The position numbers and the translations under genes are program-made. DNA of 63,559 nucleotides, the filler included, from Gonapodya sp. JEL0774 (taxonomy: Eukaryota), in NCBI GenBank assembly GCA_027604505.1. It is 52 parts of 52 records of this genome, joined end to end, with 100 filler letters (N's around TTAATTAATTAA, not from the genome) between each part and the next. Parts side by side here need not be neighbours in the genome. Positions count along the whole stretch, not along the records: positions 15,990 to 17,116 come from JADIIX010003806.1; 51 more parts are not named here. One strand, written 5' to 3'. Each line of letters begins with the position of its first letter. Position 1 is the stretch's first letter. The notes under the pieces were generated by a model, which ran no database searches, was not told where the DNA came from, and saw nothing but the letters and a program-made list of their open reading frames with translations. Shown piece by piece: positions 1 through 60,912 of the stretch.

Positions 1-388
1 TTACGGAGCAGCTTCGTCTTGTTTGTATGCCCTTCTTGTCGCAGTAAATTTAGTGCCCACTGGCTGCGTGGTGTGTCTTATGAGTATAAACCGGACTGGC
101 TTCGCCCGGTATATATCTCGATCACCGAAACGATATGTATAACTGTGACTGACCGCATGGATCGATAATCAATATCCCAAGATATTCGTCTGAAACGGTG
201 AGACTGAGGGGTGTGTTGGTCGAGACTAATTATCTACATTTTTACTGGTCTTCATCGTGCATATCCGAGATGAAGAAAGTGTTGAAAACGTTGCGTGCAT
301 TTCGGCTTGACTTGCACTTAGGCCACGAAATGGGTTGAGGGGACGCACCACGCAATCTACGGCAGCTTGGACGTGCCATCAAATCCCA

Positions 389-1132
389 ATGCTATCTCTC
401 TGGTCTGGACTGGGATCGTTTTCTCCATGGACATGGTTTCTGGAGTCAAAAGTGAGTGACTGACGGCTCTTTGCAACTCCATGCACGTACTGGATCCTTC
501 TGTGATTTGCAGCAATCTGCCAACACTCTCCCGGACGAGCTTCTGCTCCTCGTTTTTCTCAATTTACCACCTACCGATATATTATCAGTTGTCCCGCTCG
601 TCTCTCGAAGATGGAACCGTATACAGAGTTCCGTGTTTGGAGAGGGTGGTCGACTGCCAATCGAAGTAGAACTCTTGCTCACACCTCGGCTGATCGAAAA
701 GCCGGCGTCCCGAGACGCATTTTCGATTTGTGTTTCGAAAAAGCAGTTTGGTCGGCGACTGAAACCAGTTGAGCACCCTCGCGGGAGCGGCAAGTTGATT
801 CCTGTTATTGGCTTCATCCAGCTTGAAGTTCCAGCAAACGCCTTCTCTGCTGTTGGCGAGCTCGAGGATGTAGTAGCTTCCTTGACATTGGCCACGTTTT
901 CCACCAATCGGATATTCCTACCCGTGCTCCGCTCTGTCAACATCATCGGGATCAATAGCGATGTCTTTCGAGTCGCAGCTGAGGCACTGACGTTACACCA
1001 GCCGCAACACGTTCGCGCAACATATACTGCTCTTCAAGCATGGCGAACCGGCGGATTGATGCCCGAACGTTCAGTTGCTAATCTTGATCTATGGGTCTTC
1101 CGAAGAACCCCCTCGGAATCGATCACCGAAGA
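389..1132 (+). CDS. F-box domain protein, 3'-truncated (exon 389-451, intron 452-512, exon 513-contig end)
   Basis: F-box motif LPDELLLLVFLNLPPTDILSVVPLVSRRWNRI. A phase-0 GTGAGT...TTGCAG intron joins the ATG at 389 in frame. Confidence 0.75.
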
Positions 1133-1232
1133 NNNNNNNNNNNNNNNNNNNNNNNNNNNNNNNNNNNNNNNNNNNNTTAATTAATTAANNNNNNNNNNNN
1201 NNNNNNNNNNNNNNNNNNNNNNNNNNNNNNNN
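1133..1232. other. Artificial contig-joining linker (44 N + TTAATTAATTAA + 44 N); first of 51 copies separating 52 contigs
   Basis: The same 100-bp spacer recurs about every 1.22-1.23 kb. TTAATTAATTAA puts stops in all six frames. Contig lengths fall monotonically from 1132 to 1117 bp. Confidence 0.99.
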
Positions 1233-2930
1233 ATAGAGAATAAAAGAGTGGAAGTGATGGTAGTGTGGCGAAGTCAGCGGCATGCCTGACAGGCACACAA
1301 GGGACGAGAGAAGGCAGCACGAGCACCATCACTCCGATTGGGCAGAGAGCAACTCGTCTGGACTGGGCAGCTTGGAATCTTCAATGATGGGCCGGAGCGA
1401 GAATCAAGTGAGACAGGATTGAACTTCCCCATCCCACTCTTTAGTTTTGAAGACAGTTTGAGTACGGAATGGTCGCTGAAGCTTTGATTACGGAAGGTCT
1501 CGACCAACGTAGTCACTAGATATTATCTAAATACATGTTAATCGAACTTATTGGATCAACATATGTCTATAATCGTGTCGAAAGCAAGCACTTCCTGTCT
1601 GCAAATTTCGGGGAACGACCAAGAAGGGACCGGGAAGACATGGAAGCCACTAGAGTGCAAGACTTTATGAAATACAGTTTGATTTTGCGAGCGGTGGAAT
1701 TGTACGAGGGAAGTCTGATAATATTATCGCATGTGTGCGTTTGCATATGGGACATGACCCATCACATTCCGGAATTGTCCTTCAAATATGTCCTTGAATG
1801 TGATGGGTTGCTCAAGCTTGCAAAGGCACAAAATGTGATGGATCCCCTGGATTGTACGAACAAGAAAACCAGAAATGTGATGCCCCCCCCCCCCCCGTCC
1901 CTCCACATAACCAACTCCCCACTCCACCTTCCTTTCACATGTGCCATCCACCGCAACCAAATCACACATTTTGACGCTTTGCAGAACGAACAAGAAAAGT
2001 CGAACTATCTCCTACGTGTTGGCAATTTGGAACCAAGGGAACACTGGTCATGACATCGGAAAGTGGAGCCGCAGGGGATTCGTCTGCAAGCGACGATGGC
2101 GATCGGAACGTTGGAACAGGTACGTCATCTTGTTCTTGTATAGCTCTACTCGCTCCTATACTGATCCTGCGCTGACCCTGTGGTTCTGTCACACGTGAAT
2201 CGTGTTGCTGACATCAACCACCTCGAATCAATGAAAGCGTCTGCCCCTCACCACGCGCCAAAGCTTACGGCGCCATCTAAAGTATCTGGACCAAAGGCAT
2301 ACAAGACGCTCATGGAGTACGGAGTGGATGTCTCCCGGTTCTCTCCCGGGAATCGCAATGAATTNNNNNNNNNNNNNNNNNNNNNNNNNNNNNNNNNNNN
2401 NNNNNNNNTTAATTAATTAANNNNNNNNNNNNNNNNNNNNNNNNNNNNNNNNNNNNNNNNNNNNATTCGCCTTAAGTCTACCATTGCAAGTGGCAGCAGC
2501 ACTAATGGGTGAATGATATGGTGAGAATCATCTGATGAGGGTGATCAGCGTCTGTCGTGTGTGATCATAGGTACTTCCGGTAATGCATACGGAAGTGAAT
2601 CTGGATTCTCATGGAGCGTCCGCACTGTGGGGGATGATATTGATACGGCATTAGAATTTATGGCCACATTTTAACGAATGCAATACAAATACAGTGAAAA
2701 ATTTGCCCAACTCGGCGTGTACTCTTTGAAACGGTTCCTTAATCGTGAAAAGTTTGGACATCTCGATAAACTACAAATTGGTACAGAACTAACGCCGCGT
2801 CCTACAAAGAGGTCATACAGATATCTCGGATAAAAGTGTGAACATAAATCCAAGAAAGAAAACTATATTTCTGGCCATTGGCCAAGTAACTTGTTCGCCG
2901 GTGCAAGGCGCGCATACATCAGGAAACCAA

Positions 2931-3095
2931 CAACCGCATTCAACCGCATTCAACCGCAGTTGAACGCTTCACCGCCAAGATTGGTATGTACGTTTCTTCT
3001 ACTGTGGTTGAATGCAGTTCACTGCTTCAGTTGAACAGTTCACCACCGGTTGAACGTGGTTCACCACCAAATAAGTACACTTCACCGCCGTTTAC
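2931..3095. repeat. Cluster of short direct and inverted repeats (CAACCGCATT x3, inverted GGTTGAATGC, several TTCACCRCC)
   Basis: 10-bp tandem at 2931-2960, an inverted degenerate copy near 3004-3019, and repeated TTCACC/GTTGAA units. Confidence 0.7.
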
Positions 3096-6000
3096 CAATC
3101 CCAAGTTATTTCACTGTGGTCCCGCCCAGTGATTTGAACACCATGCATTGAATGGAGATTTTAATGTAGACCTTCAATAATATTACATCCCTCTACAATC
3201 CATTATTTTCAAGTCATGGCTACACTATGAGGGTATCGCAGAGCTTAAACACATGAAAAGATCAGAAAACACTCACCTTTGAGCTTGCGTTGGAGGGAAA
3301 GTCGGAACTCCGAACTCACAACGAGGGGACGTGGGGTCTTGTGATTGGAGAAGATTGGGGAGCATTGGACATCTGAAGAGTAAGATGGCAAAGTGGTGAG
3401 AGAACTAAGAAAATAATTCAAAGTGAAAGGGAACTGAACAAATATTAAGTCCGTGACTAGTTACTGCCCAAACAGTGGGGCAGACCCATAGATCACCATC
3501 AGATCACCATCAATACTGATTTTCTGACTGCTCCCCTTTGCACATATATGTATTTGAGTGTTGGGAATTCGGATTTGTAATTTGTATTGATGTGGGNNNN
3601 NNNNNNNNNNNNNNNNNNNNNNNNNNNNNNNNNNNNNNNNTTAATTAATTAANNNNNNNNNNNNNNNNNNNNNNNNNNNNNNNNNNNNNNNNNNNNGCAG
3701 TGTCGCTTCCACTGCCGATATGCAACATCCCGACAAAACCTCCGAACTCGAACAGCCCCTTGCGAGTGGCCAACCAGCTTCTGATGGTGGATCCAAAGGT
3801 ATACCGAATCAAAATGCAGCTTCTCCCACCAGTTATATCAGTGCAATACTGGAATCGCAACGAAGGTTCGGGCATGCTGGCGCAGAACCGTTACCTTTGC
3901 AGAGCGCTGGCACTACTTCTACTGCCACCATTGCACAGGTTTTGACCTTACCATCGGAGGCCACGGAAACGCGGGGTGTAAACGTCATCCTCGTAGAAGA
4001 TTCATCTAACACTGTGGTGCAAGACCTAGCTTTCTTGGACCATTGCCATGTGGGCTTGTCGCCGATGTCTTTTGCCAAGGAACCCGAGCCCGGACGGCAG
4101 CAACGTCCGTCTAATATTCGCACTCTGGAATGTGACATGCCCCAGAGGCCAAATGCCTCTGGATCCACACCGAATGCTACTTGCTATCTAGCTGAAGGGA
4201 CTATCACGGATCCCGCTGAGAGCTCGATGGAAACTCTTGGCGGGGACTTGCCGGAGACCGCAAAGACGTCTCTGACAAGCATCGTGCCTCTCAAGGATCC
4301 GAGCAGCGACAGTAAAGCAAAAATTCAAAGACGTGTTTGGTGGCTGGAAGAAGATGATGGTGAACAGCAAGAGGGTGTTGAAGTCCTTGCCGACCGGACA
4401 ACATTCGTGACGGGCTACTCCGATCAACGCGCAGCTTTCCGTTGCTGCAGGCAGGGAATGACCGAACATCGCGAACATATTGCAAATCCGTCGGATGAGC
4501 GGTGAGTTTTCTTCTCCCTGACGTAATTGAGCTCGACGAGTCCAATTATTCACAGTCCTACCATTGCTCCAGGTCAACACCAGTATCCATACCCAAGAAG
4601 AGTGCCTCGAAGCGCATCAAGGATCTATTGCGATCTCTCAGTCAGGCCACTCAATCCCTCTTTTTCAGAAGCACGCAAGGCGGACGCGAGCCGAGGCAGT
4701 TGTAGCTTCGTCCACCACATGATTGCGATATACATTATGTATGAAAAAGACCATTTGACACTCGGCTCTGGAATCGTTTCCCATGCCATGTAGATTCCCG
4801 TTAAGGCTCCGCTCCCGCAGGTGATGTGNNNNNNNNNNNNNNNNNNNNNNNNNNNNNNNNNNNNNNNNNNNNTTAATTAATTAANNNNNNNNNNNNNNNN
4901 NNNNNNNNNNNNNNNNNNNNNNNNNNNNGAAGGGATTTGCGGTGGGTGCGGTTGCTGACCTGGAACGGGTGCGGACTGGCAAGGACGGCAGGAGTGGATA
5001 CGAGTCCTCGAGACCGGGAGAAGACATTGAATTTGTCCCCACTGAGCGCAACTCGAGTTTGCGGTTGGGGTCGCTGAAGGGTGAGAAGGACCTACCTCCG
5101 TTAGCGGCCCCTACTGGTGATCGAAGCTGGGGTGACGACTTGACACAAAAGTTGGGAGAGGTGCGAGCTGAAGATCGATCTCAAGCACGAGCTGATAGGC
5201 AGGCGCGTTACACTCGCAGTATCAGCCAACGTCGAAGTATGGTGCGAGGTGTTTCGCCTCCGAACCTGAGAATCCGAACGGACTTTTCCAGTCCCGCCTC
5301 GGAGGACGTCCGCGGTCGGAACAATGCTCCTCCACCTCGCGTATTGGGAATCTCTCAGAAAGGTGACAACGCCGAGGGGCGGCGTCCCGGCCGAGGAGAG
5401 GCGCGCAAGAATGACCCGAGGAGTGTGCCCGACCGTGCAAACACCAGTGGAGCTTTGACTGGGTCCGGTGCTTTGAACACCGGAAGTGGGTCTCGGTCAC
5501 GGAGTCAATCCCGAGGTGGCTGGGGGAGCAAGGTGTTCGGTAGCATCGGACGAAGTATCACTAGGCTCGGGAGCAGTCCCAAAGTTGATACGAGCCCCAA
5601 AGGTTCTGGGAGCTTTAGGAGTCTACGCAGCAACGATGGGAAGGGCAATGCCGTCGGTGCTGGGAGGTCCGGCGAGTAAGCTCCGGTGACAGCTGGACTG
5701 CCTCCGTGGCCCTTTTATTCTCTGTCATTATAGATGATTTTACCTGTATAACGTAATGTTCAATCACAATTGCATGTTCTTGTCATCGTTTACCGTGCGG
5801 TGGATCTTTGATTCGCTAAATTACATGTGATCTTTCCCATCACTGAAACTGGACGTACACGTCGACGACTCCACCCCGCAGAAACATCGCCTTCAAGGTG
5901 AGTAGGGATCATTTCAGTGAGTATTGAAGGTCTCAACATTTCAGCTCTACATTTTCGTCCACTTTTGATCCCCGAATGACGTCACTTCAATCCTTCTTTC

Positions 6001-6779
6001 GCACGGTTGAAAGCCTATTCGCGAGTACTGTCTTCATCGCCCTTGAATGGTGTAGAGAANNNNNNNNNNNNNNNNNNNNNNNNNNNNNNNNNNNNNNNNN
6101 NNNTTAATTAATTAANNNNNNNNNNNNNNNNNNNNNNNNNNNNNNNNNNNNNNNNNNNNTCAGCTTTCTGTGGAAGCTCAGCCCGACATTATCGGATCCA
6201 TTCAATGTCAGAATTTTTCTGTCGTCAGGCCGGAACGAGTACTACATTCTATCCGAAGGCAACTTCCTCTCGGTTGGCAGCGGGTACGCAGGTTTTAGGG
6301 CGTCTTTCTTTGACAGCTTCCCTCTCTGATCCTTGTAACTGTGATTCCTCTTTGCAGAGAGGGCAAGTACGGGCTCTACCTTGACGCTTTCTTGGATCGA
6401 GGTCACTCGGAGCCGTGCTTGACGTTTGAGAACGAGGTTTTGGCCGGTGCAGAAGAGTTCAACTGTGTTGGATGTGAACTTTGGGGATTCAAGTTGTGAA
6501 AAACTGTGACGAATCTGCACTCTATACGGGATGGAAGTTTGATTTTGTGAATACTGCATTGCATACTTGCCGCGCTAGACAGTAGCTTAACTACTGAAAT
6601 TGTTCGCATTTGCTGAAAAATCCTGTAGTACCCAGTCAGTTGGTAGTTGGGCGTTGCTGTGGTCTTCGCCTGGACTCATCTTTGATCGAGCAGATCACTG
6701 ATAGCGCATTCTTCTCACCAATCGCCATCGATCGCACCAAATTCAATCACAAACAACCAATCACCTATACAAGATCAGT

Positions 6780-7290
6780 ATGTCCACCAACTGGAAGGAA
6801 CGCATTCTGCAATCAGGACATCTCGTCATAAAGGTGACTGAGCTCGCGCTTTACCATTGGAGTCGGTGATTCGGAATAAACGAACAGCAAACTCCTCGTT
6901 TCAGAATATTCTTATTGCAATCAATTTCATGACCCTCCTTGCTGGCATCACCATGATTTCTGTGGGTTGTGCAAGTCGTCAGGCACAGGGGGAACATCCG
7001 TTGTAGTGAAACCAGATCCGAATCGTCCCTCCATCATCGCGGACCAGGTTGGCGCCTATCTACAAACCAACCAGCAGTCTGCCTTCCCGGACAACCTTTC
7101 CTCCCTCCCAGGTGGTGCCATCTTCGTCGGCGTGGTTGTGACCTTCGTTTCGTTCTTGGGATGTTTCGGTGCAGCGAACGAGAAATCTGTGGTGCTCAAA
7201 TCCTACTTTGCCATAGTAATCGTGATGATCATACTGCAGTTCGTGATCGGTGGGGTCGCGTATTCGAAGAAGGGAGATGTGCCCAAGGCA
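6780..7290 (+). CDS. Tetraspanin family protein, 3'-truncated (exons 6780-6833, 6905-6961, 7048-contig end)
   Basis: The spliced product gives TM1 (KNILIAINFMTLLAGITMISVGAY) and the TM2-TM3 signature GAIFVGVVVTFVSFLGCFGAANEKSVVLKSYFAIVIVMIILQFVIGG. Both GT-AG introns are phase 0. Confidence 0.88.
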
Positions 7291-7390
7291 NNNNNNNNNN
7301 NNNNNNNNNNNNNNNNNNNNNNNNNNNNNNNNNNTTAATTAATTAANNNNNNNNNNNNNNNNNNNNNNNNNNNNNNNNNNNNNNNNNNNN

Positions 7391-8407
7391 TCCCCGCCGG
7401 ACAAGACCCCACCGGGGCGCAGCTGGGGGCCATCATCGTCCGATGCCTCGGGGGTGGCGATGTTGAGGGCTCGTGCAGACGGGGTGCGTGTATTGGCATC
7501 GTCCTCTATGCTGGAATTTGATGCCTGCGAGCTGGCAGTGGTCCAGCCATGGCGCATGAGGCGACGGCGCTCACGAGTTGCTTCGACTTCTTCTTCAAGG
7601 CGTTCCAATGGGCTTGACATAGAGCGGGTCCTGCGACCCCGAGCTTCAGCCTCACGGAGCTCCGCCTGGATTTGGGCCAACTCGACCTGTTGTCGGAGGC
7701 GACGTACTTCGTTTGCATGTTCCTCCTCTGTGCGAAGTGGCATTTGCGCTAAGACAGAGACAGGAGAGCAGAACGGAAAAGGGGGGTGTCACCAGAGGTG
7801 TTGACAATCGAGACAGCAGGCAACCCTCCATGCTGGGGGGCCTGGCCGTCTGTCCCCAGTCTGGCGCTGTCTGGCGCAGATGTTGTGTCACCAGCGAGAA
7901 GTGTCGCTGCTTCTGTAACCCAGGAGTGACCCGCCCGGCAGTTTCTCTCAGACCTCTCTGAGGAGTCTACACCGTGGCTGTCGTCAAACCTCTGCTGCTA
8001 TCATCGTGGGTCTTACTCTGCGAAGAGCATCGTACCTCACGGATGACCTGTCTGTCATCGGCAGACACCGTCCACTGGCTTCAGCCCCCACGTAGCGCAG
8101 GGTGTGCCTGCTCACCTTGATTCACAGCAGTAGCGCCAGAGGCAAGTGAATCTGTCATCGTAAATGATGTGTAGGTGTGACGGTTGGACTTCCAGAGAAG
8201 ATGGAAGTCGATCGGGAATGCCTGAAAGGGTGTATGGTAGGCGAAAAAACAGCCGTGTCTTGTAACCCCATCCGGAACGTCCGCGACGCATGCCCGCAGG
8301 TGGGATTAGCATCGGAGCATCTCGAATCACGAGTGCCAGGTGACGTCCAGATGTATCGGGGCGGGGAGACGTGGCATGTTTGCCGAGTGGGGAGTCTTGA
8401 TTCGACA
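7391..8407 (-). mobile_element. Putative 5' end of an LTR retrotransposon: about 610-bp LTR (7799-8407), PBS-like TGGTGACACCCC (7781-7794) and start of a gag-like ORF (ATG at 7743)
   Basis: The minus strand reads TGTCGA...TCAACA (5/6 terminal inverted match), then CCTC-TGGTGACACCCCCC. An intronless charged ORF (MPLRTEEEHANEVRRLRQQVELAQ...) starts about 40 nt later. No diagnostic protein domain is visible. Confidence 0.4.
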
Positions 8408-9850
8408 CACCACATATTTCTTGCGTGCACGGTTCACATACATTTTACGTAGCTAGCTTTTGTAGTAGCCATGTTTTAGGGGAGACGTAAAATGCATACC
8501 GAGTTGGCACGGCAGAGTCGNNNNNNNNNNNNNNNNNNNNNNNNNNNNNNNNNNNNNNNNNNNNTTAATTAATTAANNNNNNNNNNNNNNNNNNNNNNNN
8601 NNNNNNNNNNNNNNNNNNNNACACGTCAGGTATGAAGCGGGGGGCATTGGGCCGCCAAGCGGTCCCTTTGGGGAACAGCGACTGAAAGTTCATCCGGTCC
8701 ATGACAACAGGCTCTTGAATCCGGATTGAATGCACAGAAGCACGATAAGCGTAAGTCCTCCATCTCGCATGTAGTGTCAGAGCGAAGCATCACGTGGGTG
8801 ACGATCGAACCTTCTCATCCCTGCGGCATGGTGGGCAAAACTCAGGGGGCTCCTCACTGCCGCTGTTGGTTTAAACATCTTGTCACATATCATACATACA
8901 GACTCGCTCACAATAAACAGCATGACTTTTGAACCTGAATGCACGTTCGCATTTCATCCAGTTGCGGTATCGTGGATAATCCCTAACTGAACAAAATGTT
9001 CAGCCGAAACAAGATGTCTCCCATAGTGATTTAAGATACAGGAATGAACTCGCTGCTCTGACGTGTGTTACTTCACCATTCATCGCAGAGCAATCAGACC
9101 TATTCCAGCTTGTGCTGGGCCCCGTACACGAGCATAAGAGGTAGACTTTCTAACGTTAACGGTACAGCTGGGAAACCTCCCGCAGCTTCTCAAATGCATG
9201 AACTGAAAGGATATAGTTTTTTTTGCTGAATCCTACGTCCATCACTCCACTAGTTTCGCTCACCGTTTCCCCCGGCGAAAGGAGCTGGTGATCATCAAAT
9301 GAAGCCACAGCGGACGGCTCATCTTCAGGCAACACAATGCAAGTGCTCTCTGCCTGAGTTGGCAAGAAAACTTCGGTGGGCTGAGTCACAGCTTGGAAAA
9401 ATTCAGTAAAACAGTGCACGGTAGGAACTCATCGCGATACCGATCACGGATCAGGGTTTCAATCGCATGAAAGTATCTCCACCACGGGCTATGACAAACT
9501 GTAATGACGAGGACCTTCTAGTTTATGCCAACTAGTATGAGATCCTGATGTGATTGACACTCACATTCAGCTCAACCGGTACAACGGGAACGGCGGGGAA
9601 TGCAGAGTCCTCTCTCCGCGTTTGCTCCAAGTGATGAACTACAAAAAGAAATCTGCTGGTCCATTTCGAATTGCGCTGCTTGGACATGGCGATAGACTTG
9701 GCAGCACGTGCACAGTCGGTCATTCTCATGCAGATTGAATTGACAAGGTTNNNNNNNNNNNNNNNNNNNNNNNNNNNNNNNNNNNNNNNNNNNNTTAATT
9801 AATTAANNNNNNNNNNNNNNNNNNNNNNNNNNNNNNNNNNNNNNNNNNNN

Positions 9851-10979
9851 CAAAATTGGTCGTGACCAATTTGGTCCAGCGGACCGTGCACGCGCAAAAC
9901 TCGGTCCATGACAAGTGTGCCCATCATCGCTTTATACCATGTGGTTTGGCTTGTCGTCATCGGGTCCAAACTTCGTGTCAATTTCATGAGACTCGTCACA
10001 CCACTCATGTCTCTATGGTCCCATCAAACTCTCTCGAAATCTGTCCGTGGTCGCTCAGCGAGGATGTTGTTCTTGTGCAGGATAGTTCTGGCGGTGTGCG
10101 GAATGGCCTTTTGGATCGCCTCAGGCTTACTGATATTCCTCGTCAAACCGGAAATGTGGGTAGTTGGGTACAGCTTGGATCGCACTCTGGATTTCATGGA
10201 ACTTGATCTTGAACTGGTCCCAGGTGAGTGATCTTCGGGTACTTGTGATGGCAATATACAACTCACCATGCACCTAACTTTCCTCTTGCTGGTAGAGCTC
10301 CCCACTTCGCAAACGCACAGAAAAGGCTTGACTGATCGTTCGATGCCGCTTGATCCTCCGATTGCACTCTCTTCTGGGCTTCGTATTCACTGCTCCCCTG
10401 CGGACTTGAGTTTCTTTGTGTTCGACGAACAGTTCGCGCACTCTTTGGTTATCTCTGCCGAGTTGGATGACATGAACATTACTGAGTTTGGTGGCTACTG
10501 CCCAGAAACCGATCGTTCGGAGTTCTCTGCGTTCCCTCGGGTTATTCATACCACACAATCGTCAGAGCGTGTCGACTTAAATTCTCCAGGATTCGCATTC
10601 CATTGGGCAATAATGAATCCTTGGCACCATTTTGTGGCGTGGTCGGATGAGACTCTCCATGATTTTGTCGAAATGTGTGTTCCTTCATTACTGGACGTAT
10701 ATGAGAGCGCTCCACTAGACGTGATGAGGTATGACCTTGCTCGCTATCTCCTACTGCTGGTTTTTGGAGGCGTGTGGGCAGATTGGGACGTGATGCCGCT
10801 TCGAGAGATAGATGATTGGGTACGGGGTGTCGCTCGACTGACGGACAGCTCTCCAATCCGACCTCACGAGGTTCGATTGGTGGTTGGAATCGAAAACGAC
10901 TCTCATAAGTGGAAAGACTGGTGGCGGCACTATCCGCGTGAGCTTGGTGTAGCCCAATGGACCATGGCGGTACGACCAC
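9851..10979 (+). CDS. GT32 glycosyltransferase, Och1/Hoc1-like alpha-1,6-mannosyltransferase (partial)
   Basis: Motifs FPRVIHTT, NPWHHFVAWSD, MRYDLARYLLLLVFGGVWADWDV (DxD), LVVGIE and QWTMA are typical of the Och1 family. An upstream exon with a TM-like segment ends at a GTGAGT near 10224. Confidence 0.85.
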
Positions 10980-12307
10980 NNNNNNNNNNNNNNNNNNNNN
11001 NNNNNNNNNNNNNNNNNNNNNNNTTAATTAATTAANNNNNNNNNNNNNNNNNNNNNNNNNNNNNNNNNNNNNNNNNNNNGACGTGTCCTCGCGTTCCTTT
11101 CACGCAATGGTGGGACATCCAAAGTCACAACTACAACGTGACATGGAATCAGCTGCTGCATGAGGATGGTGGGTGCTGAGTCACCGTCCACATCCAAGGT
11201 TGACACTCGTTTCACACTTCCTACACCAGGGAGTTTAGAGATATGAGTGAGCACCTCGGTGTCATGCGCCTCGCCTTCAAATGCAAAGCAGATAGTGTCA
11301 CGACTGTGATCTTTCTGCGAGAGAGGTGTTTCTTGAGCTGGCGAGTGAACTGAGTGCAACGCCTTCCCTCTCCCCATTCGTTCGATCGCCCAATCGTACG
11401 CAACACGAGTGTCATTGTAAAAATTATACCGGGGTGGGCGATGCCGAAAGTTGTGGGAGTGGTCGAATTCCGCAATTGCTGGATGAAAGCCAACAACCAC
11501 ATTCCGCAATGCGTAGAGACCGCTTTCCTGAAGACCAGCGTGGTCTTGAGCCAAGATGTCAAAATTTATCGCCTGCATGTAATCTTGAACGGAGCCTAAG
11601 GGCTCGTCCAGGTTGAGTAATCGTGCTCGAGGAAGAGTTTCACTACTGGGTGAAACAAGTGGGGTAAGCCTTATGACTGAAAAGGCAGCAGATATCCAAC
11701 AAAAGAGAAGTTCAATTGAGCTAAAGCCACCACCACGGTGCCATGAGTGACTGAATGCGACTGGCAGCATCTGACTCTGAGACGTTGGTATTGCATCACC
11801 CGTTGCTGAGCGTGGCGGTTTCTCACCGACGTGGATGACAAGAACCCCCAGGCGAACTCCCACCGTTGCATGTGACGTTTGTGAAAAGTCCCACCCAAGC
11901 AGCAGAGGTACCCGTCGGGGTTGGGCCTCCACTTGGTGCTCGGGATTGTATGCACCTCCCTCTGGAGGGAGAAAAACGTGAAAAGTATGGGGATGCACCC
12001 CACGATTGGTATGAACCGAGAACATTGGTCTGACAAAAGTCAAAGAAACGTGGCAGGCGAATGCAAACATCGACAAGTCTTCCTCGGTCCTCCCACTTGT
12101 TCCTTCCGCGCTCGTGATCGCTTTCCCCTCACACCTGAGCGCTGTAAAGCCTGCCTCAAGCTCCTCCGCAGTCGCTTCACGCGTAGTACAGAGCGAATGA
12201 GTTCCTGNNNNNNNNNNNNNNNNNNNNNNNNNNNNNNNNNNNNNNNNNNNNTTAATTAATTAANNNNNNNNNNNNNNNNNNNNNNNNNNNNNNNNNNNNN
12301 NNNNNNN

Positions 12308-14762: not shown

Positions 14763-15889
14763 CGTCCACCCCTTCATCAGTCAATTTTCATGCCTCTACT
14801 GCTCCAAGGGAATCTGAAATGGAACCGTTTAAGCCATTCTCCCTCCCTTCTGCTCTTGAGACTATGAGGGCTTTGGTCTCTCTTATTGATGTGAAGAATC
14901 GCCATCACACAGACTCTAACCATAGAATTGTGGCCCTTGGCCTGTTGACAATTGCGTTTGAAGTTGCTGGAGCCAGCATAGCAGACTGGGTGCAATATGG
15001 CAAGAAGGTGGCTAGATGGTCCCAACAGTTAACACTTGGTGCCACATCTGCAACATCTGACATTGACTTAAAGTGCGTGTCGGGCCAACAGAGGAATCAT
15101 CTGAAAGCAGTCACAAACTCTGCCCCAGACAACTCTGATTTGCATTCAGAAAGAGCAATTGCTTTGAATTATCTAGAGCTTTCAACACACTCCAATTTCT
15201 CATCACTTATTTGTGATGACCTGTGCCATCATCTTTTTGCAATCTTGAGAATGGAGAATGTTACATTTGGAAATCCTCCATCATCAATGCAGTTGACTTT
15301 GATTCAGTCTGCTCTTCAATGTGGTGTAGCACTGTTTGCAGCTGCTAGAAGAGAATTAAGGGTGCAATGGGAGTTCTTCTTGGATTTCTTAATGACAAGG
15401 TGTGAACAGGGAGTTGTTGGTTGGGATGTTGGGGAATGGGGACGTTCCTCCAGCCAGCAGTCTTCTTCAGTACCAAAGTCGCTTGATCTCCTCAGTGATA
15501 GAAGGGGGTTAGTTAATGTCCGCTGGCCACTCACAGGGGAAGTACGGGAGTTGATCCTGGAATCACTGACCCAAGTACAGTTTGTGACTGTGAAGGAATT
15601 TGTGTTGCACTATCAAATGACAGTCCTCTGTTTCTGGCTTAATTTATCCAGTTTGCTCGCATCCCAACTTTCTTGCATGAATTGTATGTCAATTTTGACT
15701 GTAATCTGCACTCGCAGTACCATCTTTATGAAGATGTTGTAGAGTTCTTAGCCAAGGTGTGTACTTGATGTGGTGACTCGAGGTATAGTTATAATTTGCT
15801 GACATCTGCTGCGAACATCAGCACTCATTCCCAGATGCCACACCTGGAGGACCTGTCACTTCATTGCAGCACCAAACTGTCTGCTTAGA
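14763..15889 (+). CDS. GEA2: Sec7-family ARF guanine-nucleotide exchange factor, Gea/GBF1 type (internal fragment, HUS region)
   Basis: KPFSLPSALETMRALVSLIDVKNRHHTD...AFEVAGASI, and after an intron FARIPTFLHELYVNFDCNL (HUS box Y-x-N-Y/F-D-C). Confidence 0.85.
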
Positions 15890-16365
15890 NNNNNNNNNNN
15901 NNNNNNNNNNNNNNNNNNNNNNNNNNNNNNNNNTTAATTAATTAANNNNNNNNNNNNNNNNNNNNNNNNNNNNNNNNNNNNNNNNNNNNACAAAAAGTAG
16001 GGATCGGTGGGAAGGAGGAGGAGGGCCGGGCATCAGGCTGGACAAGCAGACGGTATCCACCCGTCCTGCCTATCCTAGTCGCTGTGGTACGTCACACCTC
16101 ATCGGAGGACGAGAACATATCCTGTCATCCTGCTTGTCCTAGTCCTTGCGGTATGTCACACCACACCGGACGAAAAGGTCGTATCCTGCTGTCCTGCCTG
16201 TCCTCGGCCGCTCCTTGGCCCGTGCACTCGCTCCGAGGAAGGAACCGTGTGGAACACCCTCGAACATTCCTGAAAGAACTTTCGAAGACTGTTGGAAACA
16301 AAAGATGCACCCAAATCCCTGACCCCCTTCCAAACGAAAATCTTTCAAAGGTGACATTCGAGAAG

Positions 16366-17116
16366 ATGCCAACCACGGTGAATGACGGTTCTCCGATGGA
16401 CATGGACGACGACGAAGACACCAGAGGCAGCAAAGATGGGGTGTACAGAGAGAGCCAAGTGAGCGATGCTCTCAACCGCGCTCTGGGTTCACCGGTGAAA
16501 ACGATGTGGACCGAACGAGGCGGCCGGCTCTGGTCCAGCGGTACGAGCTGTTGGTGTCCATCGTCGCATCGCGAGCGTGGTCTTCCTGGAAGCGACAACC
16601 TCGACGACCTCGACGACCTCGACAACCGCGATGGTCGCTGCGTCGAGTGGTATGTGAACGTTCACGATGACAGAACAGTGACGACGTGGTGTGCTTAGCA
16701 CGGAGAACGGCAGTTGGAACTACCTGTAGCGTATGCCGTCCACCTCGCGGTCGGCACAGTGTACGTTCGAATGACCGAGGGCGCGACGGAATATGAGGCC
16801 CTCCGCGGCACAATGTACAACTACGCAAGGGTTCACGGACTTCGCCGGGACGGCAGCACGGGGGACATCTACGAGCCTGTGCAAACGAGAAGTGCATGGA
16901 CTCCAAGACGTTCCTCTTCCGGGTCTTCTCGCAGGATTACCGCATGTTGGCTAAGAACCGACGGTACCAGCGCGACCTCGTCGAATCCCTGATGACCACG
17001 CCTGACCCCCGTTTACCGGTGCTGCGAGTGTGCAAGCGTTACTTTGGCTTCCGCAACGGGATCTACAACATTGAGACCTGCGAATTCACACCTCGGGATA
17101 AGGTGCCGGTGGTCGT
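16366..17116 (+). pseudogene. D5-like primase-helicase N-terminal region of NCLDV (giant virus) type, disrupted
   Basis: Conceptual product YARVHGLRRDGSTGDIYEPVQTRSAW / KTFLFRVF...DPRLPVLRVCKRYFGFRNGIYNIETCEF matches the D5_N-type F-x-N-G-[VI]-Y-[DN] motif. It has an in-frame TAG at 16696-16698, a frameshift near 16890-16905 and no evident introns. Confidence 0.65.
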
Positions 17117-47809: not shown

Positions 47810-48930
47810 TGTTCAGATTGTCAAAAATATTACTCACCTGGATCAAAGTATGAGGTTTGCATTTGTGCAATAAGTTTTCTCATACTCTCTGGGGGAGCAA
47901 GCTTGGCAGTGTATCCTATTGCAACTCCCATTGATTTTCTAATTGCAGCATTGCGATCCTTCATGGCAGTCACCAGTGCACGAAGAAGGAGTTCAGAATG
48001 TGGCTGAAGAAGACTGGGTATTTGTACAGTGAGGGATACTAAAATCTTGGCGGAGCCTGCCTGTTAAATGATGTCAACGGTTTAGGTGCTTTGAAATACT
48101 GGGGTAGTGACTCATGGTGTACCTTTGTGGGGAGTCCAACTCCACGACGGATTACCTCAGCAAGCTTTGGTGCAAGATTATTCATGACTCTTTCGTCAAT
48201 TTGAATAATGCAAGTCTCCATTGCATCCATCTGATACCAAAGAGGGCAATTTTGAACTTTTGCTTCTCAGCAAACCTTTGAGGAAAAGACACTCACCATG
48301 GGAGACATTTTGGCAGCACTTAATCTTGAGCTATCAATTTGCTCTTGAGTGAGGTTATACTTCTCAGCATGAAATGTCAGGTAGTCTATGGGTTTTGTCA
48401 GAAAATTCTCAGCCATCAATAAAGCCTGAGTTCTTCATCATATGTGCTCACTCATTGCTTGAGGTTCTAATGTGGAAAGACTTTCCAGTAAAACTGTGAC
48501 TATGTCAGGAATATGGGGTTTTAGGAGTATACCGCCACGTTTCACAAGTTTGAGAATTGTTTGAAGACTGAACTTCTTCACATCTTCAGCCATATTGGCA
48601 AGTCCCTTTGGTGAATGAATTAATGAAAGTCAACTTTCATTACATATACTAGGGTTCAAAATATCACCTTTTGGAGCATGAAGGGAAGCACAATATCAAC
48701 AATCTTTTGACCATCTGAAGCTGAGGCAACAGTGGGGTCACAATATTTGATGGTGACAGTTGTCAAAGAACGGCATGCTGACAATGCTGCAACCCTTACA
48801 GACTCTTTTATGTCATCTAAGCACCGAAAGCACATTGTCCAGAGAACGGCCATGTTGGTCTCCAGCTGCTCAAGTTGACGGCCAGTCAGCAAATCTGATA
48901 GAGCAATACAACTAACCATTTCACAAGTCT
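47810..48930 (-). CDS. ECM29: Proteasome adaptor Ecm29, internal multi-exon fragment
   Basis: SCIALSDLL...LWTMCFRCLDDIKESVRVAA, LLESLSTLEPQAM, RLSAAKMSPM, IRRGVGLPTK. Confidence 0.93.
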
Positions 48931-56350: not shown

Positions 56351-57469
56351 AGAGTGTGGGAAAAGGCTTGTATGTCAATCTGGGTGTGGTGAAGGGCATA
56401 ATTTGTAAGCTCAGTTGTGTGCACAGAAAAAATATAGATAAGCAACCCAACATCCATCTCAACACTTTGAGACCTGCGACTCTTGCTGGACCCCAAATGT
56501 CCACATGAACACGCCCTCCAGGGTTGGATGCTCTTCTTCTTTCTGGTTGTGAATAAGGGAACTGTGCTGCTTTTCCAATTTTGCATCCATAACAAAATAA
56601 TGAGTGCTGCAAATCATTCAATTTGACATCCTTCATCTGTCCTGTTCTCACAATACTCTCCAGATCACGCTCATTTACATGCCCTAGTCGGAGATGGGCT
56701 AAAGCATGGTGCATGTCTGCAGCACTTTCAACACTTAACACCTTCGCAGTATACTCTGCAGGGTTCAACTTTGCTGTAATAGGCATCTCGTATAATCTGC
56801 CATTTGAAGAGTGTCCCCTGCAAATCTCCTTGCCATCAGCATCAGCCAGAATGCAAAGATTGGTTTTGGCAGGAAAAGAGACACTGAAACCAAGTTTCTG
56901 CAATGCAGTAGTTGCCAAAAGTGTAGATCGTGCTCTTGGATCATAAATCACTCTGGGAATGTTGATCTCAGTCTCAAAGCCCTTTCCATGAAATGTGACA
57001 CCCAAAATGCCCCTCCCAACTGCAGTTGATTTCTGACCCTTTGCAGCCAATGATAGAAAGATGTTCTCCTGCTTAAATGAACTAAGACCCTGTCCAAGTG
57101 GTGTAATACAGTCTGATGCACCAGAATCAATCAGAAATCGATGTCCCTCATCACTGACAAGAAATGTCATTGAATCTGTATTGGCTGGATTGGTGGTATC
57201 AAATGAGTATGAAAACAAGTTTGAGCAGACGTATCTTCATATTGGCCTTGCTTGGTTGGGTCAGACACAAGCAGTCCCTTTTTAGGGGGACAAAGGCCTG
57301 AATGCTCCGGCACACCCCGACCCAACCTTGGTGTTGTGGAGTGCACCCTACGTAAATCTCTCTTCATGTTCTTGCCAGCTTTGCAGAAATCTCCCCAGTA
57401 TGGCTCTTCAGACCAATGATCCTCAGCAAAGTGGTACATTCCACCACATTCCCTGCATTGCATGAAAAT
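56351..57469 (-). mobile_element. Ty1/copia retrotransposon fragment: zinc-knuckle ORF end, aspartic protease, GAG-pre-integrase, start of integrase
   Basis: FLIDSGASDCITP (protease), LAHLRLGHVN...CYGCKIGK (HHCC) and RVHVDIWGPARV (integrase start) in copia PR-IN order. The upstream knuckle ORF is in a different frame, and homology is lost after about 56450. Confidence 0.93.
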
Positions 57470-60007: not shown

Positions 60008-60846
60008 GCATTGTCGTACACTCGTGAACGCATGCCAATCGTAGGTTTATACACATTAGCAAATTCGAAATCCCACAATTTGGCAAGGACACCAGGAAAA
60101 CGAACGTGAAACACGAGTGTATCGCCCTTGACTTTATCCACCCACTCGTATCGTACATATGTTGGGGGAATTCCACGTTGCTCTTCCTCCTCTGCACTCA
60201 GAAGCGATGTGTCTAGTAAAACATTCCCAAAGTGTGTGTCCGCATGAACCAGGCCATACTTGTCTTGTAAAATTGCAAGTGTCCACATTACACTAAACAC
60301 TGTATAGCGCCAAACTTCATCGCTCAACTGTTCGGGCGCGTTGTCTATGACGTGGTCCAAGCCACCTCCACATACATACTCCGACACCAACACGTTCGCA
60401 TCAGGGTACGGAGAGCACTTTTTGTACCGCTTTGTGCGAAACGATTGGAAGGCCGGAGACTCCAAGTCCGCAGTCAAATCACCAAAACACGCCGTCAGGT
60501 GAGGGGTTTCTCTCACACAAGCTTGTAATGCTCGCAGGATTCCCGACTCCAAAAAGGTTGGGTGTTGAGTAAGATTGTAACTCCTCGATAGTGGATTCAG
60601 CTTCACCACATATTTGAGAGCGTCGTGAGGATGATCATAGACACAAGCCAAAATACCTTTGAGCTCAGAACTTCGTCCCTTGTGAATGATAGACTGATAT
60701 CCAAAACCAAACTGCGGCTTCTGAACGTCAAAGCGCTTGCCAACTTTCTTGCCAACAAGTCGTGCCCTACCCTTTTTTATAGCCGTCAGTCGCTCAGATA
60801 GTGTAAGATGGGGAGTACCTTGGGTGTCGATATTACTCATTACCAT
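60008..60846 (-). CDS. NCLDV (Mimiviridae/Imitervirales-type, F10-like) Ser/Thr protein kinase, 3'-truncated
   Basis: Intronless ORF with YVVK, ETPHL, NVLVSEYVCGGGL, WRYTVFSVMWTLAILQDKYGLVHADTHFGNVLL and FHVRFPGVLAKLWDFEFA. The motif order matches the conserved giant-virus kinase, which has DFxFA instead of DFG. Confidence 0.8.
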
Positions 60847-60912
60847 CCTATAAAACTTCTCTATGATTTTTTCACTTTAATCATCATTTCAATCACACAA
60901 AATTTTCCGTAA

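Follow-up and report, generated by a model that had tools for sequence, protein, structure and literature searches.

Is the short stretch of D5-like coding sequence found in an assembly of the zoosporic fungus Gonapodya sp. JEL0774 a working gene, a contaminant or the decayed remains of an integrated virus and, in the last case, what kind of element carried it? D5-type proteins are hexameric SF3 helicases, usually combined with a primase, that drive viral DNA replication. The initial annotation of the locus, made from sequence alone, had proposed a decayed D5-like primase-helicase left by an endogenised large DNA virus. The window (the whole stretch of DNA analysed, 63,559 nt) comprises 52 contigs of 1,117-1,132 bp each, sorted by descending size and joined by an identical artificial spacer, N44-TTAATTAATTAA-N44, which contains stops in six frames. 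Because these spacers occupy every join, reading gene neighbourhood across them is invalid, and adjacent contigs were ruled out as genomic context of the helicase fragment, which constitutes an entire 1,127-bp contig bounded by spacers on both flanks and thus has no true neighbours. Neither a host-virus junction nor a second viral gene was found on this contig. Pfam scanning of 128 reading frames (from each contig, at most the three longest that reach 90 residues) identified eukaryotic exportin-T, COX5B, Mre11, Duc1 and F-box/LRR proteins as well as retrotransposon parts on other contigs, and no viral hallmark at E ≤ 0.001 across the 52 contigs. The eukaryotic genes, together with homologs of the fragment at 85-91% identity from Gonapodya sp., identify a zoosporic fungal host.

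Judged by its sequence, the copy is the broken middle part of a D5-like helicase gene, comprising a putative zinc-binding region and the D5_N region. The features of the contig are as follows.

15990..17116, no strand assigned: carrier contig, 14th of 52, 1,127 bp, with the spacer N44-TTAATTAATTAA-N44 on both sides, ending at 17116
16054..16181, + strand: imperfect direct repeat (2 x 64 nt, 72%) upstream of the gene, showing no homology to the helicase family
16351..16455, + strand: N-terminal leader with an ATG at 16366, 81% to the sibling P0003; not a primase domain
16456..16695, + strand: piece A, degenerate putative zinc-binding region, with the Cys/His pattern of the family as seen in the alignment
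16593..16628, + strand: 9-bp tandem repeat (3.4 copies) within about 16-21 inserted in-frame codons that the relatives lack
16696..16698, + strand: premature TAG, interrupting a conserved C-x-x-H-G-like block of the putative zinc-binding region
16699..16884, + strand: piece B, comprising a linker and the beginning of the region with D5_N, 92% to P0003 over 62 aa
16884..16887, + strand: frameshift, net 16 nt shorter than the open sibling P0003
16887..17116, + strand: piece C, D5_N region with FGFRNGIYN; 43% to P0005, 32% to the environmental homolog L011, matched by the family profile

The reading frame is thus not intact, being interrupted by the TAG at 16696-16698 and the frameshift at 16884-16887. 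The in-frame TAG was found where it had been annotated, as were both peptides quoted at that time, FGFRNGIYN included. A change of frame had been placed at 16890-16905; the change itself is real, and comparison with P0003, which follows frame 1 as far as 16884 and then frame 3 from about 16887 onwards, moves it to about 16884-16887. At this site 5 nt stand in place of 7 codons of P0003, a net loss of 16 nt, and a homopolymer is absent, so the difference is not a homopolymer slip. With the frameshift at this position 'TRSAW' becomes out-of-frame text, and the likeness to a YEP..AW block perceived in the first reading is therefore partly accidental. The contig end at 17116 cuts the gene before the SF3 helicase core, and no primase or helicase catalytic domain and no Walker A motif was found on the 1,127-bp contig. 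In the upstream 460 bp, none of three frames matched the relatives that bear a Prim-Pol domain, and frames upstream of the gene reached z ≤ 3.0 against four relatives. Piece A, weak by itself (z = 2.1 against P0005; no match to L011), gains support from two comparisons, namely a joint tblastn alignment with P0005 and a match to the sibling P0004 (62% identical over 45 aa).

Family membership of the two downstream pieces was established with a profile built from nine relatives, the sequence of the window being excluded. This profile matched piece C (E = 2.7e-14, profile positions 309-389) and piece B (E = 2.6e-6, profile positions 249-310, adjoining those of piece C), and the remaining 1,869 of the 1,871 six-frame fragments gave E ≥ 5.5 or nothing, so that no further helicase pieces were detected elsewhere in the window. 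Shuffle z-scores against the 787-residue P0005 were 18.9 for piece B and 21.9 for piece C, and the alignment to P0005 continues on either side of the TAG as well as of the frameshift (29% in a stretch of 197 columns, 43% in one of 77). The Pfam D5_N profile, with which the annotated identity was to be checked, matched piece C alone with E = 0.11, under its curated cut-off, and likewise remained under cut-off in the relatives (E = 8e-4 to 1e-2). The D5_N assignment, below cut-off by Pfam, is supported by the family profile, by an ESM Atlas search with a sibling and by fold. In that search, residues 74-200 of P0004 retrieved a D5_N cluster as first match (0.96); a second ESM Atlas search returned mostly unnamed clusters, one of them with D5_N on 22% of its members. 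Sequence searches of the PDB with P0004 and A2 as queries returned nothing meaningful, and PHROGs gave only E > 0.1 for the fragments.

The alignment-based structure model of the metagenomic relative P0007 (pLDDT of 71.6) provides the fold evidence, the single-sequence model of P0003 being unusable (pLDDT of 37.9). In a viral structure library, ranks 1-3 were D5-type helicases of Aureococcus anophagefferens virus, Tetraselmis virus 1 and Pandoravirus salinus; phage proteins lay lower, a virophage helicase came 48th, and 10 of the 20 top rows were unnamed. Matches in the PDB were the SaPI5 primase-helicase, mpox E5, ASFV PrimPol and vaccinia D5. The predicted fold of P0007 thus appears to share the D5_N and SF3 core with poxvirus D5/mpox E5, ASFV C962R PrimPol and the SaPI5 primase-helicase, although identity to P0007 is 11-17%, and the N-terminus of the family differs from theirs in being a Prim-Pol domain (PF09250, pRN1 ORF904-like) that is apparently missing from the Gonapodya branch. 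With these matches, the D5-like identity put forward for the fragment stands.

Homologs of the fragment were found in two zoosporic fungi. A first search, over 32 candidates, gave two matches, P0003 and P0004, which are Gonapodya sp. JEL0774 gene models on contigs of 1,388 and 2,738 bp, with 85% and 91% identity to the broken copy; in a shared block of 48 residues the three copies are identical pairwise at 43, 44 and 45 positions. A profile of the two sibling stretches then gave seven matches among 6,004 candidates, namely P0003, P0005, P0006 (861 aa), P0007 (683 aa, metagenomic), two Zopfochytrium polystomum proteins and the distant fragment P0010. Sibling region 74-198 as query found nothing among 205 candidates. 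P0005 (KAJ3335126.1) is an uninterrupted protein of 787 aa from the same Gonapodya proteome, encoded on a 10.4-kb contig and 43% to piece C. A third Zopfochytrium polystomum protein sits in the same cluster as the two profile matches; the three (P0008, P0009 and P0011) are near-identical, internally deleted or truncated models on contigs of 313, 119 and 37 kb. All named cellular carriers of the family are zoosporic fungi (Gonapodya and Zopfochytrium).

In full-length P0005, P0006 and P0007 the SF3 helicase region, DUF5906, passes its cut-off and D5_N does not; DUF5906 was also above cut-off in the environmental loci L009 and L011. Prim-Pol is above cut-off in P0006, P0007 and P0008 and missing from P0005, and the Gonapodya branch accordingly seems to be without a primase domain. 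P0005 also has a C-terminal extension (residues about 580-787) with no Pfam match and missing from all other members, which we take, by its motif, to be a candidate PD-(D/E)xK nuclease. The multi-copy state and the apparently primase-less branch go beyond what had been claimed for this locus. In the parts of the literature on Gonapodya, Zopfochytrium, Mycodnaviridae and polinton-like viruses that were available the multi-copy family was not found; the strain table of PMC13533422 may list these fungi.

Both siblings look disrupted as well, apparently each at its own sites. Part of the P0003 model is read in a frame that the family does not use, and the match is taken up again one codon past the TAG position, so the stop may be common to both copies. 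The P0004 model omits about 100 residues, and the 7 residues at its end agree fully with what the Walker A stretch of P0005 would give in a shifted frame, the sole match among 5,880 comparisons. P0004 thus likely enters the helicase core and breaks there at Walker A, which would indirectly supply a frameshifted Walker A for that sibling. The TAG lies within aligned coding sequence and so counts for decay, and, with the 16-nt frameshift and the apparent breakage of the siblings, the locus combines disabling mutations with diverged multiple copies, bearing out the decay originally proposed. A domesticated, intron-containing host gene, in which TAG is a splice acceptor and splicing removes the apparent breaks, would account for the match of P0003 resuming exactly one codon past TAG, as at an intron end, and for the uninterrupted 787-aa paralog with a new C-terminal extension in the Gonapodya proteome. 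This explanation is highly improbable. Coding homology runs upstream through TAG in the same frame, so that an intron ending there would delete conserved residues; the out-of-frame part of the P0003 model is typical of a predictor avoiding lesions; the 5 nt between matched blocks at the frameshift are too short for an intron; and P0004 appears broken at Walker A.

To which lineage the family belongs was approached through its environmental relatives. An alignment scan of metagenomes (166 candidate stretches) recovered L009 (65% to P0007, 2.6 kb) and L010 (10.3 kb), and a scan of viral contigs (108 stretches) recovered L011 (56% to P0007, full length) and two distant phage loci. Against P0005, L011 aligns with 32% over 535 aa (E = 6e-90) and L010 with 28% over 367 aa (E = 8e-34), the latter alignment leaving out the putative zinc-binding region. 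Viral contigs searched with P0003, P0004, P0005, P0007 or the P0006/P0005 alignment, and metagenomes searched with a piece of the broken copy alone, gave no confirmed locus. The contig of L011, on which the helicase gene neighbours S1/P1 nuclease, ankyrin-repeat and T5orf172 genes, belongs to bin GVMAG-S-3300005689-16. Two marker groups counted for this bin, NCVOG0023 and NCVOG0038, we take to be D5 and PolB, respectively. The bin is a high-quality assembly of 217 kb in 16 contigs from lineage MGVL29, with 11 of 20 marker groups and with NCVOG0022 (capsid; PMC13533422), NCVOG0023 and NCVOG0038 counted 2 each (PMC7162819). Also placed in MGVL29 is GVMAG-M-3300015360-128 (PMC7162819), one of three IM_02 genomes (PMC8575486), IM_02 corresponding to Mycodnaviridae (PMC13533422). 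Yet 32 bins of MGVL29 are published and one GVMAG contig was matched in the viral scans, so the family may not be the core D5 of the lineage. The large-DNA-virus affinity originally suggested is nevertheless supported, with L011 in a giant-virus bin and giant-virus proteins as top structural matches of P0007; the epithet 'phycodnavirus-like' applies loosely, the closest relative with genomic context belonging to the MGVL29/IM_02 (Mycodnaviridae) lineage.

Several features of these loci were recorded alongside. L010 (positions 1-10316) is polinton-like and encodes a D12 methyltransferase, an A32 ATPase, a ResT/TelK-like recombinase, the D5-like helicase and a weak Tet-like gene, with no capsid recognised by Pfam or NCBIfam. 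Of the anatomy of a polinton-like virus, a 15-25 kb element with capsid, A32 ATPase, integrase or recombinase and terminal repeats, a part is displayed by this distant homolog alone. Directly after the helicase stop codon there is an inverted repeat in L009 (1436-1533; 35 nt, 97%) and in L011 (5127-5240; 38 nt, 100%), for which a terminator hairpin, an origin and an element end are candidates. In L011 a T5orf172/MUG113 gene lies between 30-nt inverted repeats (5273-6236); its end duplicates, at 88%, the final 213 nt of the helicase gene, and it is possibly a small mobile cassette in the giant-virus bin.

In a tree of 18 rows, the broken copy and its two siblings group together (98/100 support, end branch of 0.048) and are next joined by P0005 (84/95). 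An 11-row group with P0006, P0007, L009, L011 and the Zopfochytrium copies received 84/95 and is not starred; L010 and P0010 fall outside it on long branches, and five phage rows are set apart at 99/98. No named giant-virus or polinton-like virus protein is among the rows, and the tree by itself therefore cannot decide origin. Six phage-type primases matched by the broken copy, mostly on the short NG-x-YN motif, were rejected as too distant in the tree. A P4-type primase of phage or plasmid type was not recognised, TIGR01613 giving 44 and 58 bits against a cut-off of 108.7. Bacterial contamination, which the initial annotation had named as the alternative, was likewise rejected, as 50,697 phage records gave no match, 0 of 38 candidate stretches in prokaryote species genomes was confirmed and the phage rows lie outside the group in the tree.

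The same loci bear on whether the carrier was a giant virus or a polinton-like virus or other small integrating DNA element with a Prim-Pol/SF3 helicase, inserted often and now seen as decayed copies. Such an element would fit the copy number, since at least three close Gonapodya-linked copies and three Zopfochytrium copies lie on separate contigs; primase-SF3 fusions are common in polinton-like viruses, ATPases of which occur in chytrid genomes (10.64898/2026.06.19.733378, in the part of the text available). It would also fit the A32 ATPase, ResT/TelK-like recombinase, DNA methyltransferase and Tet-like gene adjoining the L010 helicase, as well as the long inverted repeats located after the gene in L009 and L011. 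Five mycodnavirus contigs carry polinton-like integrases (PMC13533422), implying that polinton-like viruses and mycodnaviruses swap genes. However, L010 is more distant from P0005 than L011 by the E-values given above and does not align over the putative zinc-binding region, the neighbours of L011 are not polinton-like genes, and the top structural matches are giant-virus proteins, with the virophage helicase far down the ranking. A small integrating element is thus an unlikely source, and from one binned relative, L011, we infer a giant virus as carrier instead.

Composition places the fragment apart from these viral relatives and close to the host. GC3 of the three pieces is 0.66, 0.69 and 0.80, as compared with 0.16 in L011, 0.34 in L009 and 0.50-0.73 in eight host frames, which run stop to stop and are partly intronic. 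The 30 MGVL29 bins listed have 23-37% GC (PMC7162819). The high GC3 relative to L011 and the AT-rich bins implies either that the donor was no close relative or that the sequence stayed long in a GC-richer genome. Codon-position asymmetry is still present in the pieces of the broken copy and, as this bias and CpG are both kept, function was probably lost recently. A long separation from the AT-rich environmental relatives would thus have been followed by a recent loss of function.

Some of these values could also come from a contig that is not integrated but derives from a free virus, as a defective piece or through mis-assembly, or from another organism in the assembly. The contig is 1,127 bp long and without a host gene, its GC (0.574, rank 5 of 52), CpG observed/expected ratio (1.11, rank 2 of 52) and trinucleotide distance (rank 5) lie at the edge of the 52-contig range, and the CpG signature of three other contigs is very different, which may point to an assembly of mixed origin. 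This account is nonetheless decidedly improbable, since both siblings, on other contigs, also appear broken, each at sites of its own, GC3 resembles that of the host frames and is far from that of the viral relatives, and no phage or prokaryote carrier was found in the searches described. Moreover, base-calling errors do not typically take the form of a 16-nt difference or a clean nonsense codon.

We therefore consider it probable that a giant virus related to Mycodnaviridae left the fragment in a zoosporic fungus, as one of several copies that decayed recently. The intact ancestor would have served this virus as its replicative helicase, a hexamer driven by ATP, judging from its resemblance to poxvirus D5/E5 and ASFV PrimPol. 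Such a virus would integrate into the fungal nuclear genome, as mycodnaviruses do, and duplication or repeated integration would yield several helicase copies which, under no selection in the host, would each gather their own lesions. The present copy could encode at most a 110-residue N-terminal peptide, predicted to be without enzyme activity. Eukaryotic large-DNA-virus affinity of the fragment is supported, and the fragment is probably a relic of an already published kind, its place in Mycodnaviridae being tentative. Against this reading, the Mycodnaviridae link is indirect and runs through one contig of a metagenomic bin; the near-identical copies in two fungi and the Prim-Pol N-terminus fit a small mobile element equally well; and the homolog L010 (28%) lies in a polinton-like 10-kb contig. 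An improbable variant is that, in Gonapodya, a mycodnavirus-type D5 gave rise to copies without a primase that now spread through the fungal genome as an element of their own. A helicase-nuclease of the P0005 type could then copy and insert itself, which would explain the dead Gonapodya copies of about 90% identity, the three Zopfochytrium copies and the inverted repeats of L009 and L011.

The favoured reading, a giant-virus relic, has precedents in several described systems. Mycodnaviridae (IM_02/MY_02) have zoosporic fungal hosts and count a D5-like helicase-primase among their hallmark genes (PMC13533422), and L011, the nearest contextual relative, comes from a lineage that holds an IM_02 genome. 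The same source, in the portion available, describes isolated 'viral fossil' genes and active proviruses in zoosporic fungi and giant-virus capsid genes in two Monoblepharidomycota genomes. In contrast, the present case is a pseudogene fragment on a tiny contig, multi-copy, GC-rich and apparently primase-less, with no capsid, PolB or junction on that contig. A Phycodnaviridae-like DNA polymerase and D5 were tabulated for Gonapodya prolifera in 2017 (PMC5294986 Table 1, by column position), and D5 of Allomyces macrogynus is named in the running text of that paper. The G. prolifera gene belongs to the genus of the nearest homologs and is the same gene type, a eukaryote-borne NCLDV marker; both cases concern other species and are likened here by description, and multi-copy decay was not found in the available portion of PMC5294986. 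Fundsalphaviruses and fundsbetaviruses likewise provide a D5 helicase-primase in fungal genomes, with stops and frameshifts as evidence of endogenisation (PMC7017919). Fundsalphaviruses differ in being Pithovirus-related, and Gonapodya does not occur in the main text of PMC7017919 as available; both groups are set apart from Mycodnaviridae in PMC13533422. Polinton-like viruses share the primase-SF3 fusion, multi-copy integration and occurrence in chytrid genomes (10.64898/2026.06.19.733378), but the sole polinton-like homolog found, L010, is more distant and has another N-terminal part, and no polinton-like gene lies on the contig of the fragment.

The fragment would be a further trace, decayed not long ago, that large DNA viruses infected a monoblepharid-type fungus. 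Relics of this sort have been published before, and the case is of little surprise unless the copies turn out to be self-moving. The analysis also ties a Prim-Pol/D5_N/SF3 family of Gonapodya, Zopfochytrium and environmental contigs to the MGVL29/IM_02 lineage, a small independent hint of fungal hosts for these metagenomic viruses, whose host is left open in the available text of PMC13533422. In fragmented chytrid assemblies, degraded giant-virus relics could be sought with the family profile as a marker in addition to capsid, and the Zopfochytrium copies P0008, P0009 and P0011 are good material for carrier anatomy.

Two further observations concern other contigs of the window. Long open frames on the minus strand at 60010-60876 (289 aa) and 11081-12205 (375 aa) have no Pfam or NCBIfam match. 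The CpG observed/expected ratio is 0.22-0.27 in three contigs (14763-15889, 47810-48930 and 56351-57469), against a mean of 0.87; one of these carries a copia-type retrotransposon piece (0.22), one a weak Sec7-like HUS match and one no Pfam match, and their composition could reflect either methylation-driven CpG loss or the DNA of a second eukaryote.
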